Source of the DNA: Candidatus Borrarchaeum weybense
GTDB lineage: Archaea > Asgardarchaeota > Sifarchaeia > Borrarchaeales > Borrarchaeaceae
Assembly (NCBI GenBank): GCA_019057385.1
Contig: JAHQJS010000006.1
Coordinates: 416,001 to 480,000, forward strand
Direction of reading: 5' to 3'
DNA length: 64,000 nt
In this document: positions 1,384 to 9,020 of the stretch, one piece after another
Position numbering within the stretch: the first letter of the stretch is position 1
Layout of the letters: each line of letters begins with the position of its first letter
The notes under the pieces: generated by a model
The model's input: only the letters and a program-made list of their open reading frames with translations
What the model was told of the DNA's origin: nothing
Database searches by the model: none
Translations under genes and position numbers: made by a program

Positions 1384-1415
1384 GGAAGCCCCTATCCTTT
1401 AGGGGGGTAATTTAC
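1384..1415 (+). mobile_element. Solo IS200/IS605-type right-end hairpin
   Basis: GGAAGCCCCTATCCTTTAGGGGGGTAATTTAC resembles the ends at 20107-20139 and 33167-33309. Confidence 0.55.
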
Positions 1416-1915
1416 ATTGCTGGAATGCATTCCAATGTTTTACGCAAAAGAACTGCGATAGCCTTCCCAATACCCTCTCCTGTTATTGCACTTGTACCCA
1501 CAATAGAAAAGGAATCTCCAGCAGCTAGAGAGAAATATTCCACGTCTAAGGCATCGGGTAAATCCTGTTTATTTGCAACTAGAACAAAAGGGACCGTATC
1601 TGGAAGTTTATTTAACAATCGTTGCAGCATCTTCACTGCAGTTGAAAATGTGTGAGGTCTTGAGCTGTCAAAAAGAACAAGTAAGCCATCTGCTCCTTGA
1701 ACTAAGATTTCTCTCATAAATTCGAAGTGTTCATGACCTGGCGTACCAAAAGCAAAGATTTTTATTCCAGACAGATTACAACGTCCAAAATCTAAAGCGA
1801 CTGTTCTACCTTCATCATTATTTATGCTAAGTGCTCGTTTTCCACTAAGTTTTTTAATAAAAGTAGATTTGCCGCAAGCTATGGGACCAGTCACAACTAA
1901 TTTAAATCTAGACAA
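1412..1915 (-). CDS. Small GTPase (MglA/Arf-like, ATP_bind_1-type)
   Basis: G1 GPIACGKST, G2 TVALDFG, G3 GTPG, G4 NKQD, G5 SA. Confidence 0.9.
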   Translation of the reverse strand: MSRFKLVVTGPIACGKSTFIKKLSGKRALSINNDEGRTVALDFGRCNLSGIKIFAFGTPGHEHFEFMREILVQGADGLLVLFDSSRPHTFSTAVKMLQRLLNKLPDTVPFVLVANKQDLPDALDVEYFSLAAGDSFSIVGTSAITGEGIGKAIAVLLRKTLECIPAM

Positions 1916-2057: not shown

Positions 2058-2477
2058 CTATTCTCCAATGATTTGAACTATTATTTCTCTGGAGCGGGAC
2101 TTTACATCAAGTTCAAGAAAAACAATCTGTTGCCAAGTTCCCAATATCAGTCTTTTTTCATTAAAAGGTACTGTAAGACTTGGTCCTAAAATAGATGCCC
2201 TAACATGGCTATGCCCATTGCCGTCATGCCAGAGTTCATGATGCTTGTAGTATGCGTTTTTCGGGGCGAATTTCTCAAGTGCATTAGGTAAATCTTCTAT
2301 TAAGCCTGGTTCGTACTCGATAGTTGTAATAGCTCCTGTCGCCCCAGGACAGAAAACTGTGGCGATTCCGTTATTTAAATTAGTTTCTTGAATTACCTTA
2401 TTTACAGACTTGGAGATATCAATGATATCTACTTCACCTTTAGTTTGAAACTTGATTTTTTTTGTCACTACGGTCAT
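2058..2477 (-). CDS. yjbQ: YjbQ/UPF0047 family protein
   Basis: HDGNGHSHVRAS and LILGTWQQI motifs. Confidence 0.9.
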   Translation of the reverse strand: MTVVTKKIKFQTKGEVDIIDISKSVNKVIQETNLNNGIATVFCPGATGAITTIEYEPGLIEDLPNALEKFAPKNAYYKHHELWHDGNGHSHVRASILGPSLTVPFNEKRLILGTWQQIVFLELDVKSRSREIIVQIIGE

Positions 2478-2515: not shown

Positions 2516-3343
2516 TCAGAAGATTTGCGAACTTTTTTTCTTTAAAAGCCCTGAGGCACCTTTTCTAATATCTTTTCCTTCTATCGTCTTCCTTTGAGAC
2601 GTACTTGCAATATTGGCTGCCCTTACGACAGTTTGAATGATTATATTTTCTAAAATATCTCGGAGAACATCTGGTGCATCTTGGCCTATTCTTTTTGCAC
2701 CAGCATCTTTTAGTAATCTCCTCATTGTAGTCTTTTTTAACTCATGTGTGTATAGTTTTGTTAAATCCCATCTTCTAATGAAATTTACAATAGCATCAAT
2801 GAGATCCCTTTCTCCTAATTTTCTATTTTTAGCTGCGATTTCGAGTTGAACAGCATGCACTCCTCTTGAGATCTTTCCGTGATACGATACGATATCACCG
2901 CCCATATACTGAGGTGCCTCCATAAATGCATATTCACCCTGAATATCTCTTGCTTCGAGTTCTTCACGGAGCATTTCAATATAATCAACGTCAATAGTAA
3001 CTCCACCAGACGTGCCAAATAAAACAGTAATTTCTTCGAATGATGTAATTGGTTTTTCCATACCATGAATGTCTAAGAGAAGCACTTCTGAATGAGTTTT
3101 AAGGAGATCAGTGATGATTTCTTGAATCCTCTTACGAAAAGGTGTGTCTCTCCACTTAGCCCTGTTGTAGTCTTTATCTTCACGTGAGACAGTCGCAATC
3201 AAGGCATATGCTCCAACTTCGATTGCAACTCTATATGCTATTTCACCTGTTAAGAGATCTGCACGTGGACCCATAGCATGAGGCGCCGTCAATAAGACTG
3301 GTATGTCTCCAGGAATCTCAATAAATCCTTTTAAAGTCAACAT
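2516..3343 (-). CDS. N-formylglutamate amidohydrolase-like metallohydrolase fused to a C-terminal archaeal histone fold
   Basis: LLTAPHA, SR..KDYNR, LLDIHGM and AVQLEI hydrolase motifs. The last 75 aa (2516-2743) RRLLKDAGAKRIGQDA...RKTIEGKDI align with HMfB. Probable ATG at 3343 after GTGGAG (track start 3427). Confidence 0.8.
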   Translation of the reverse strand: MLTLKGFIEIPGDIPVLLTAPHAMGPRADLLTGEIAYRVAIEVGAYALIATVSREDKDYNRAKWRDTPFRKRIQEIITDLLKTHSEVLLLDIHGMEKPITSFEEITVLFGTSGGVTIDVDYIEMLREELEARDIQGEYAFMEAPQYMGGDIVSYHGKISRGVHAVQLEIAAKNRKLGERDLIDAIVNFIRRWDLTKLYTHELKKTTMRRLLKDAGAKRIGQDAPDVLRDILENIIIQTVVRAANIASTSQRKTIEGKDIRKGASGLLKKKSSQIF

Positions 3344-3544
3344 ATTTTTCTCCACAGACTTCGATGACCTCATAGAATTCCCTTGTGACTGCGGTGACAG
3401 AATGCAAAACTTCTTGATTACTTTCAATTCAAGGCTTATAAAAAAATATTTTATAATTGCTTTGTATTTATCTAGCGATTAAGATATTGCGAATCATCAA
3501 ACACTAACCTCATTAGACGAAATATATCTGTTTGAGGGATCGAT

Positions 3545-5020
3545 TTGGGTGTCATCGAAAATATTTGTCGTGAGTACGAAGTTGCTATCGGACTTGAAGA
3601 GGAACTGTTAATCATTTCAAAGGATGGGACACTTGTAGCTGCTGCAGACCAACTGATGGAAACTGCTGCAAGCCTATTGAACCAAGATGCCGAAAGACTG
3701 GAACGTATAATGTTGAAAATTAGGTCTCTGGATCCAGAACCCAACCTGGCACAAATTGAGCATGTGAGTTTACCGATTCCACTTTCAGAAGTTCCTTCAG
3801 CAATCACCGAAGGAAGGGCGCTTCTCTTAGATTCCGCAAAAAGCCTAGGCTATAAATTGTTTGTTCAAAGTTTACACCCTCTTGAGAGCAATCCACATCC
3901 TATGTGTGGAACTCATATCAATGTATCTGCAAAACGAATAGCTAACGAGATAATGAATCCTAAAGAGATATTAGCCGTATACAACCATCTTTGGAATCAT
4001 CTTCCAGAGCTCATAGCCTTATCTGCAAATACGCCAATCATTCAAGGAGAGAAGGGAGCGGTTAGTAATCGTGTTCTGAACTCAACTGTTCTGAAACCAA
4101 ATCCTTTTGGAAAGTTACAGATCCCTCGTCATCAACCTGCTTTAGTTCAAAATGAATACTATGGTGCCCTACGCTACTCGTTAAAAATAGGTGCACTTGA
4201 AAAAGAGCCAACAATAATCGCAAACACAACAGGACATAGATTACGCGACATTACACCGCGCGGCCCCTCTACAAACATTTCAGACGATAAGGAAGATAGT
4301 TTTACTCGAAATCGTATTGAAACAAGAATTTTTGACAATCAAAGAGAACCGAGAAGGTTAGTAGACTTATCGAGAATTGTGAGTGGGCTTGCAATTGAAG
4401 CACTGTGTCTTTTAGAAAAGGGCAGCCAAATTATTGAAAACCGTGCTCATGCTGTAAATCGAGAAAGAGCGATTTTAGATGGCATAAATGCCACTTTCTT
4501 ACATGAAAAGAATGGTTCTGTCATAGAAATTCCTGCTAGAGAAAGAGTTCTTGAAATGCTTAATCGGACAGAGATGCACAGAGAACTTCTAGGCGCAAAA
4601 CTTCAGACTGATTTGAAAAATGCAAAGACTGAAGTAGAAATAAAACGACCTCGCTTAGAAGTTGCGTATTCCAACCCTGAATTTGAACGTTTGCGAAGAA
4701 GTGGTAAAACGGTAGTATCCGTTCGCTTTGGAAAGGTTAAGAATGTTTCGGACATACGAAGTAGCAAGAAATATAAGATTTCGAGAGGTCAGACTATTAC
4801 AGGAAAACTTGGAATTGGGCTTTCTTTGACTTTTGATGAATCAGAAGCAACTCCAGGTCTAGTAACTGATTTCAAGGATGTTTTAATGAAAAACTATCTG
4901 CTGGTTTCAAGTATCCGTATTCCTCTCAATGAGTCGGATGAAATCATTGCTGCGATTTCTGAAGAAGAATACATGAGGAGACAGTTTTTTGGTGCGGATG
5001 CCTTTCCGTACTTTTTTTAA
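3545..5020 (+). CDS. GCS2/YbdK-family carboxylate-amine (glutamate-amine) ligase with an extra C-terminal beta-rich domain
   Basis: IGLEEE, QIE, CGTHINV, ALSANTP, DITPR and RIETRIFD motifs, followed by a ~130-aa extension. Confidence 0.8.
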   Translation: MGVIENICREYEVAIGLEEELLIISKDGTLVAAADQLMETAASLLNQDAERLERIMLKIRSLDPEPNLAQIEHVSLPIPLSEVPSAITEGRALLLDSAKSLGYKLFVQSLHPLESNPHPMCGTHINVSAKRIANEIMNPKEILAVYNHLWNHLPELIALSANTPIIQGEKGAVSNRVLNSTVLKPNPFGKLQIPRHQPALVQNEYYGALRYSLKIGALEKEPTIIANTTGHRLRDITPRGPSTNISDDKEDSFTRNRIETRIFDNQREPRRLVDLSRIVSGLAIEALCLLEKGSQIIENRAHAVNRERAILDGINATFLHEKNGSVIEIPARERVLEMLNRTEMHRELLGAKLQTDLKNAKTEVEIKRPRLEVAYSNPEFERLRRSGKTVVSVRFGKVKNVSDIRSSKKYKISRGQTITGKLGIGLSLTFDESEATPGLVTDFKDVLMKNYLLVSSIRIPLNESDEIIAAISEEEYMRRQFFGADAFPYFF

Positions 5021-8285: not shown

Positions 8286-9020
8286 TTATAAAACAGCGGA
8301 ATGGTTGATAACATTCCACATTTTATAATAATCATCAATCTTTCCGTTGGCGGAAAGACCAGCCTTAAGGTTATCGGGCTGTGCGCTCGTCACCGAGTTC
8401 AACACATGCTTCATTACTACTGTTTTTTTCAGTATTTCAGCAGTCTTGAAGGACGTTATCCCGCTATGCTTGAAGAGTTTATGGATCTGTGACCAGCTAC
8501 GGTAAGGACTACCCTTTTTCAAATGAGGTTCTATGTACTCCTCAACTTGTGAGAGCACCCAATCGTAGATGGCTGGAAATGCTTCCTTAAACCCTAGCCC
8601 TCTTCGAGCTATTACATAACTTGCGAAGTGATGGACTGTCAAATTATGTAATCCTGAATATTTGTAGTTCCCAATGAGGGAGGTATATCCTGGAAATACT
8701 TTTCGAAAGGACACACCGCGCTTTTTGCATTTTCTCTCTAATAATTGCAAGGCGGTGGTCTTCAAATTGCTCAGTTTTCGGTTGCGTGTTGTATTATAGG
8801 AAAATTCTTGCTCTAATTGTAAATCTTCAACTACAATTCCTTTACCTTTATTGATGCAATAATTGACGACTTTATCCATTTTATAGGAGATATAATCATT
8901 ACGTTTATCTGTTCTATAGCTGTGAAGATTGCCAAATGATATTTTGCGATAGGAAAGCAATGTGCCGTTCTGATTCACGTTTGTTAACGCCACAAAATTA
9001 TAATTAAAATCTAAGCCGCT
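8286..9020 (-). pseudogene. tnpB: 5'-truncated IS200/IS605 TnpB-related protein
   Basis: Frame extends above the track start to SGLDFNYNFVAL (RuvC-I) then a stop. IVVEDL (RuvC-II) and PGYTSLIG..KY....H..ASYVIARRG are present. The N-terminal REC/WED half is missing. Confidence 0.75.

Follow-up and report, generated by a model that had tools for sequence, protein, structure and literature searches.

A histone-fused amidohydrolase head-to-head with a YbdK-type ligase in an Asgard archaeon: a candidate lineage-specific variant of an archaeal glutamyl-amide module

In a 64,000-nucleotide stretch of the genome of the Asgard archaeon Candidatus Borrarchaeum weybense (assembly GCA_019057385.1, contig JAHQJS010000006.1, positions 416,001 to 480,000; hereafter the window), a gene for an N-formylglutamate amidohydrolase (FGase)-like enzyme that ends in a complete archaeal histone fold is arranged divergently with a gene for a carboxylate-amine ligase. 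Comparison across archaeal genomes leads us to favour, with modest confidence, a reading in which this locus, histone tethering included, is a lineage-specific variant of an old archaeal module of two or three enzymes that makes and removes a glutamyl amide bond. Relative to its counterparts elsewhere, the module has been remodelled in the window's Asgard class: an ATP-grasp enzyme was lost, the two remaining genes turned divergent, and a helical accessory domain was swapped for the histone fold. The glutamyl-amide assignment rests on the recurrent partners of the ligase, all of which are enzymes that form or break glutamyl amide bonds. The locus comprises the following features:

2516 to 3376, minus strand: hydrolase-histone fusion gene, 286 amino acids from ATG 3376, stop codon at 2516-2518.
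2753 to 3340, minus strand: FGase/PghP-like zinc amidohydrolase domain, about 196 amino acids (PF05013, family profile, invariant residues, Foldseek).
2561 to 2743, minus strand: complete archaeal histone fold, alpha1-L1-alpha2-L2-alpha3 (PF00808, NF043032, 1b67), with a short basic tail to 2519.
3377 to 3544, no strand: divergent intergenic region (sequence, and alignment of five loci of the genus).
3545 to 4696, plus strand: catalytic domain (residues 1-384) of a divergent YbdK/glutamate-cysteine ligase (GCL)-type (GCS2) carboxylate-amine ligase.
4697 to 5020, plus strand: C-terminal domain of the ligase, basic and all-beta, covering residues 385-491 and the stop; tentatively an SH3-like small barrel.

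The fusion gene sits inside a longer minus-strand reading frame (2516 to 3427, according to the list of open reading frames (ORFs) and its translation). Its start is likely ATG 3376 (MRSS...), because homologues from other assemblies share the N-terminus MRSS(K/N)SVEKN and because a TAA TAG closes the frame just upstream in a relative from the genus. PF05013 matches the N-terminal two thirds of the product (E 3.9e-12, 47.2 bits against a cut-off of 28.9) over profile positions 113-215 only, while the family profile of the hydrolase domain recovers the window's own copy (G000:C6:418753-419340) at E 1.3e-106. The APH, DIHG and QLEI metal-site motifs pointed out in the preliminary description of this DNA are present and conserved: numbering from the Met at 3343, residues H22, D29, D91, H93, Q166 and E168 are invariant across 12 hydrolase homologues of 34-94% identity, as are R54, D58, N60 and the GGD at 148-150. 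An AlphaFold2 (AF2) model of the fusion based on 12 homologues reached a predicted local distance difference test score (pLDDT) of 84 and a predicted TM-score (pTM) of 0.87. Foldseek searches of the PDB with its enzyme part retrieved FGase 2q7s (E 4e-8) in an alignment that spans the DxH and QxE motifs, residue roles being assigned by analogy, along with Atu2144, 2odf, CCP-type M14 carboxypeptidases (3l2n, 4a37), YndL (5onj), PghP (3a9l) and 21dc, which are poly-gamma-glutamate hydrolases, and Csd4. These nearest folds are zinc hydrolases, all of which cleave glutamate amide bonds. Orthology with HutG was rejected, because the score on the equivalog TIGR02017 is 27.8 bits where 278.75 would be needed and no hut genes lie nearby; the model scores place the enzyme in the FGase superfamily but not among HutG orthologues. 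Public annotations call homologues of the fusion either "histone" or "N-formylglutamate amidohydrolase". An assembly artefact or frameshift was also rejected, since the fusion recurs in independent assemblies: 4 genomes of the genus have it, a second family of the class has it too, and four sources contribute about 8 metagenomic clusters.

As a rule, archaeal histones are small and stand alone, and histone folds are obligate dimers. In the fusion, archaeal histone models match the final 75 residues (PF00808, E 1.8e-9, 38.2 bits, cut-off 21.4; NCBIfam archaea_histone NF043032, E 2.6e-14, 53.4 bits, cut-off 50), and the modelled tail superposes on the solved structure of HMfA (1b67) with a TM-score of 0.90 and a root-mean-square deviation of 1.0 Å over 66 columns at 32% identity. 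The earlier proposal of an amidohydrolase with a complete C-terminal histone fold is thus borne out. Alignment to HMfB (1a7w) indicated that the equivalents of R10, G16, R19, R52, K53, T54 and D59 are kept, and that H49 and L62 are replaced by T and K, respectively (N and Q at the same positions in the fusion of genome G009). In HMfB, we take R10, R19, K53 and T54 to be DNA contacts, R52 and D59 to form a clamp, and H49 and L62 to serve the tetramer (four-helix-bundle) interface and hypernucleosome extension. Because the DNA-contact residues are kept, H49 and L62 are lost, and the domain is basic (isoelectric point (pI) 10.4, net charge +9), the fused fold looks like a DNA-binding, non-extending ("capstone-like") histone. 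The DNA-contact residues are mostly kept across homologues of the fusion, K53 and T54 being changed in P0008 and P0009. A homodimer prediction for the full fusion gave a median of 0.40 against a mark of 0.42 and was counted neither for nor against dimerisation. The host genome also encodes six stand-alone histones, five of which keep H49 and L62; the six lie at G000 C6:276977, C4:567807, C7:667758, C7:667064, C7:666434 and C5:100612. One stand-alone histone (L039; G000:C5:100612-100797) has a lysine-rich N-terminal tail and carries L and K at the H49 and L62 positions, both lost as in the fusion.

The ligase ORF (3545-5020, plus strand) encodes 491 amino acids from a TTG start, which is also the start used in the database gene call (P0013). 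PF04107 (GCS2) matches it locally, at residues 132-176 only (E 3.4e-6, 27.1 bits, cut-off 21), and TIGR02050 reaches 40.3 bits (cut-off 176.4). The intact motifs reported earlier for this GCS2/YbdK-type enzyme are confirmed by 18 orthologues, aligned over their full length at 28-72% identity, in which GxEEE, E65, E72, H124, E155, R232, R239, R257, E259 and R261 are invariant. The AF2 model (pLDDT 88.7) presents a fold of the glutamine synthetase (GS)/GCL type with conserved metal- and ATP-binding residues, and its fold score was highest against YbdK-like 1tt4 (30.4; 308 residues, 2.9 Å), followed by plant GCL 2gwc (24.4), Dop (20.7), PafA (19.6) and glutamine synthetases (about 18). Because this comparison ranks YbdK-like 1tt4 and plant GCL at the top, a placement with which Foldseek agrees, the ligase is, on its predicted structure, a very divergent member of the YbdK/GCL branch of GS-fold ligases. 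PafA-like tagging was rejected as the closest analogue, the fold score of PafA lying below that of YbdK, and no candidate tag protein was found near the window locus. The extra C-terminal domain is basic and beta-rich, as previously described, but extends over about 105 amino acids (residues 385-491) and not about 130. Its pI is 9.3, with values of 9-10.4 in 17 of the 18 orthologues, and it is kept in all lineages, such that it is not specific to chromatin. Searches with this tail yielded no Pfam family at E up to 5, and a protein-atlas search gave nothing usable.

To place this gene pair in its evolutionary context, we considered 301 genomes sampled from the phylum. The ligase is present in 43 of these, and strong hydrolase matches (family-profile E < 1e-36) occur in 16 genomes from six families of the GTDB. 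In 15 of these 16 the hydrolase directly adjoins the ligase, the sixteenth match being located on a 2.2-kb contig end. The pairing, on whose conservation the preliminary description had staked its proposal, is hence conserved across six Asgard families, and extends to a Korarchaeote and another archaeon. Two arrangements were distinguished. In the window's family and two others (together f1, f2 and f17), the two genes are divergent and the hydrolase carries a C-terminal add-on, a combination to which the divergent arrangement is confined. In f15, f16 and f19 (10 loci), the order is ATP-grasp, hydrolase, ligase, with co-directional and often overlapping genes, and the hydrolases carry an N-terminal extension of about 110-150 amino acids; the same operon is also found in a Methanodesulfokora (Korarchaeota) assembly and on another archaeal contig. 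The ATP-grasp enzyme of the 10 loci belongs to the YheCD / ATPgrasp_ST / TTL / RimK group (YheCD matches in 10/10, TTL in 9/10), and among solved structures it comes closest to a Pby1-like protein, TTLL7 and RimK-like ligases. Its profile positions 19-63, which include the D..E.N metal motif, align to TTL positions 294-337, and positions 220-316 to earlier TTLL7/RimK segments. This alignment of an N-terminal segment to the C-terminal part of TTL suggests that the enzyme (L004:4833-6011 and nine orthologues) is circularly permuted. Neither a protein query nor the 10-sequence profile found this ATP-grasp in the window's genome, the best profile match (E 1.6e-5) being an unrelated ORF of 299 amino acids.

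In the Heimdall-type families f21 and f10, the ligase occurs without an FGase-type hydrolase; downstream of it lie instead a gamma-glutamyl cyclotransferase (GGACT) and an enzyme resembling a GATase, of either class II-like or class I/peptidase C26 type. Other neighbours of the module include a dipeptide-epimerase-like MR_MLE protein and a CoA ligase, and an MFS transporter in the Korarchaeote. An ABC transporter beside one distant locus, Pot-like at first sight, was dropped as evidence for polyamines, since its SBP_bac_1-first domain order fits sugar-type importers equally well. In the window itself, the fusion is surrounded by YjbQ, a small GTPase, the ligase, Ino1 and a methyltransferase; the ligase is the constant neighbour.

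A HMMER scan of 1.84 billion representatives with the hydrolase-domain profile recovered 25 clusters at E < 1e-30. The architectures observed were a stand-alone form of about 195 amino acids, a majority form with the N-terminal extension, forms with long N-terminal additions including a beta-propeller, and forms with a C-terminal add-on that is either an MTH865-like domain or a histone. Within the family, P0077 (657 amino acids), P0079 (622) and P0089 (401) fuse the hydrolase to a PQQ-like beta-propeller or other long N-terminal regions, and genomes of f16 and f19 contain hydrolase paralogues of 425-465 amino acids at other positions. In a maximum-likelihood tree of the hydrolase domain (61 rows), the histone-bearing forms make up one group (support 100/98) from two families of one class, with the MTH865-bearing group (99/96) as its sister and a joining node supported at 99/97. 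As the histone-bearing forms cluster together, these data fit acquisition of the histone on one occasion, at the position occupied in the sister clade by a different small helical domain. Homologues with as little as 50% overall identity (40% in the histone part) still carry the fusion; of the six genomes sampled from the class, it was found in five, and the remaining one is 76% complete. The N-terminal extension of the sister hydrolases looks like a generic helical bundle, for which no Pfam family was found at E up to 5 and a protein-atlas search returned nothing usable; a PDB sequence search with the MTH865-like add-on produced no real match, and the MTH865 literature was uninformative. Judged by this distribution, the module is older than the histone fusion and functions without a histone in most lineages. 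Since the sister clade bears an MTH865-like domain and most other lineages an N-terminal helical bundle, the histone may be no more than a substitute for a dimerising or adaptor domain.

The fusion and ligase genes are separated by 168 bp; the gap of about 200 bp given in the preliminary description, which was correct as to the divergent arrangement, is obtained (201 bp) only if the hydrolase starts at ATG 3343. Across five loci of the genus, an A/T-rich, TATA-like core at about 3436-3460 is invariant, as is a GAGGGA located 8 nt upstream of the ligase TTG at 3545, and we infer a promoter in this region. A further stretch of some 33 nt, ahead of the hydrolase gene (about 3388-3420), is invariant in the five loci while its flanks vary. 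It is non-coding, since a relative has an in-frame TAA TAG there, and could be an operator or leader element. Two genomes of the genus (loci L003 and L008) contain a 48-bp insertion in the divergent promoter region (alignment columns 138-185) that is absent from the window.

Taken together, these observations suggest a mechanism for the glutamyl-amide module as it occurs in the window. By analogy with the GS/GCL fold, the ligase would spend ATP on turning a carboxylate, most probably the gamma-carboxyl of glutamate, into an acyl phosphate, which would then be condensed with an amine. The hydrolase would cut such bonds, by analogy with FGase, PghP and M14 enzymes; H22, D29 (or E34) and H93 would hold the zinc, and E168 would act as general base. 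Because histone folds dimerise obligately, the DNA contacts are kept and the tetramer interface is lost, the most likely role of the histone fold is to pair two hydrolase chains and keep them bound to DNA as a dimer or cap that does not polymerise. Held in this way, the enzyme would carry out the removal step mainly at the nucleoid, or would be tied into the control of its own divergent promoter. A role of the fusion in chromatin is possible.

Several points weigh against this interpretation. The Pfam and NCBIfam matches of both enzymes are weak or partial, and far below equivalog cut-offs. The substrate is assigned by analogy only, and DNA binding and dimerisation of the fusion are read from its residues, with the K53/T54 changes in P0008 and P0009 also fitting a purely structural or dimerising role. 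Finally, making and removing the same bond in one cell needs a purpose, such as regulation, protection or recycling.

As for the substrate, a small amine, a short glutamyl peptide or a cofactor tail comes close to an even chance and is at least as likely as a protein. This is the direction in which the nearest folds of the ligase, its GshA/GshB-like pairing with a permuted ATP-grasp, its GGACT and GATase partners, and the MR_MLE, CoA-ligase and MFS neighbours point. A protein substrate, to which we assign roughly a third of the weight, and of that in turn about a third to histones or chromatin proteins, is suggested by the kinship of the ATP-grasp with TTL, RimK and YheCD and of the hydrolase with CCP and PghP, by the varied adaptor domains, and by the basic barrel of the ligase. 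Something else altogether would be a minority outcome.

The small-molecule evidence also feeds the alternative that survives best, which we still regard as unlikely, namely that the locus is purely metabolic. The ligase would then make a small gamma-glutamyl compound (candidates being a gamma-Glu-Cys-like thiol peptide, a gamma-glutamyl-polyamine or an oligo-glutamyl cofactor tail), the hydrolase would recycle it, and the histone would be a dimeriser without a DNA role that replaced the helical bundle or MTH865-like domain. YbdK and plant GCL as the nearest folds, a GCS2 plus permuted ATP-grasp combination that recalls GshA plus GshB, and neighbours elsewhere that comprise GGACT, GATase/C26, MR_MLE and CoA ligase, with MFS in the Korarchaeote, all fit this picture, as does the interchangeability of the accessory domains as small helical units. 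However, dimerisation alone would not need the retained R10, R19 and R52-K53-T54 or a pI of 10.4. Retention of the histone add-on down to 50% protein identity, and the coincidence of the divergent switch with C-terminal add-ons, likewise argue against a metabolic role without DNA.

A cycle that writes and erases marks on chromatin, as envisaged in the preliminary description, appears improbable. Here, the ligase would mark histones or chromatin proteins with a gamma-glutamyl or other amide, and the histone fold would pair with host histones and thereby bring the eraser. Put in its strongest form, itself no more probable, the eraser would be built into chromatin through a capping histone paired with host histones and, together with the ligase, would alternately add and remove a glutamyl mark, whose carriers would be histones, other chromatin proteins or DNA-bound polyamines. 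The proposal draws on a true histone fold, with DNA-contact residues, fused to the would-be eraser, on a conserved and divergently arranged hydrolase-ligase pair, and on an ancestral ATP-grasp within the protein-glutamylase clade (TTL, TTLL7, RimK, YheCD). The fold that the hydrolase shares with CCP deglutamylases, the varied adaptor domains of its family, including a beta-propeller, and the basic SH3-like barrel on the ligase also speak for it. Its logic survives insofar as the two chemistries are plausibly opposed and other gamma-glutamyl cutters lie beside the ligase elsewhere, but histones as the substrate are unsupported. Because the module predates the fusion and works without a histone in most lineages, histone modification is not its ancestral job. 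Nor is the basic C-terminal domain of the ligase specific to chromatin. An MTH865-like domain or an N-terminal helical bundle stands elsewhere in place of the histone fold, and delivery into hypernucleosomes through the usual interface is doubtful given the loss of the tetramer residues H49 and L62. In addition, the tether is on the eraser only, the ligase is closer to YbdK and GCL than to PafA or Dop, partners found elsewhere (GGACT, PuuD/EgtC-like GATases) are small-molecule enzymes, and no candidate tag protein was found nearby.

Least probable by our estimate is a trigger-enzyme regulator that would sit on the shared intergenic region and adjust expression of the ligase gene and of its own gene to substrate load, like divergent one-component regulators: the confinement of the divergent arrangement to clades f1, f2 and f17, the invariant non-coding intergenic blocks within the genus (including 3388-3420) and the retained DNA-contact residues agree with it, but archaeal histones are established to bind DNA with little sequence specificity, conservation within a single genus is weak evidence, the invariant catalytic residues imply that the protein is still an enzyme, and the MTH865-like domains of the sister divergent clade are without any known DNA binding.

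Several further genes were noted around the module. At 7 of 17 loci, drawn from four families, a small Ras/Arf-like GTPase is encoded at most a few genes away (window 1412-1915, minus strand; L004:9913-10500, L063:4585-5187, L065:12544-13179, L067:684-1310, L069:11850-12533 and L077:1765-2466), and is the immediate divergent neighbour of the ATP-grasp gene in two f19 loci; this proximity may be due to chance, Asgard genomes being rich in such GTPases. In one family, a conserved helical protein of about 76 amino acids with an acidic C-terminus (e.g., ...LKEE) is encoded just downstream of the ligase (L004:8453-8683, minus strand; L063:6318-6632, plus strand; L064:9628-9867, minus strand). It is a possible carrier or tag candidate, and was not found in the window's genome with the queries used. 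In the window, a YjbQ/UPF0047 gene (2058-2477, minus strand) starts 38 bp past the fusion on the same strand and is probably co-transcribed with it; this synteny holds within the genus (L001-L003) and not in the G009 locus. Also near the locus is a truncated TnpB-like ORF (8286-8993, minus strand; 235 amino acids). It matches the model in its C-terminal part only and represents a mobile-element remnant.

Asgard archaea are the archaeal group closest to eukaryotes, and the conserved fusion offers a concrete, clonable test of whether histone folds recruited enzymes to DNA before eukaryotes, as well as of whether "capstone" histones carry cargo. It also provides a handle on an orphan ligase/hydrolase(/ATP-grasp) module across Asgard archaea and Korarchaeota. 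If the histone only dimerises, the finding would be a curiosity of domain shuffling; if a glutamyl mark were indeed cycled on chromatin, it would amount to prokaryotic chromatin modification by a chemistry new for archaea.

Compared to known systems, the window ligase shares 13-16% identity with YbdK/GCS2 ligases and glutamate-cysteine ligases (PF04107; 1r8g, 1tt4, 2gwc), from which it differs by its additional basic beta-barrel of about 105 amino acids, the local extent of its Pfam match, and an NCBIfam score far below the cut-off. The hydrolase has the same M14-like zinc-hydrolase fold and His/Asp/His plus Glu motif as HutG (PF05013; 2q7s) and PghP/YndL (PF05908; 3a9l, 5onj), whereas its core is shorter (about 195 amino acids), fused to a histone, and encoded beside a ligase with no hut genes near. 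PuuA/PuuD, EgtA/EgtC, PafA/Dop and TTLL/CCP are ligase/hydrolase pairs that add and remove glutamyl amides. They follow the same logic of a GS-fold or ATP-grasp ligase combined with an amidohydrolase, and their fold classes recur here and in the sister operons; to our knowledge, none of them pairs an FGase-type hydrolase with a YbdK-type ligase and none is histone-fused. The second (ATP-grasp) ligase of the GshA plus GshB pathway has a counterpart in 10 related loci, and was not found in the window's genome. Against the co-directional three-gene archaeal module, the window lineage is without the ATP-grasp, has divergent genes, and has lost the N-terminal extension and gained a C-terminal histone. 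Capstone-type archaeal histone variants, reportedly described by Stevens and colleagues in PNAS in 2020, are stand-alone proteins; the window fusion likewise keeps the DNA-binding residues and replaces H49 and L62, but has a 200-amino-acid enzyme attached.

Domain-fused prokaryotic histones have been catalogued, with GTPase, zinc-finger and other add-ons and including the Rab-GTPase histones of Lokiarchaeota (Schwab et al. 2024, PMC11390915). Like the window fusion, the latter are Asgard proteins with a globular N-terminal domain and a C-terminal histone fold, whereas the partner in the window is a hydrolase with intact catalytic residues and alpha3 is of full length, unlike in the alpha3-truncated type. 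No mention of an amidohydrolase-histone fusion was found in the text and eight supplementary files of PMC11390915 or in 2026 papers on archaeal and Asgard histones, and no enzyme with an intact active site fused to a histone in the same prokaryotic-histone literature. Literature that links an FGase to a histone fold, a carboxylate-amine ligase or an ATP-grasp was not found either, the 2009 amidoligase survey (Iyer et al.) being outside the scope of this search. The enzyme families and the ligase/hydrolase logic are thus already known, and what is new is their histone-fused, ATP-grasp-less, divergent version.

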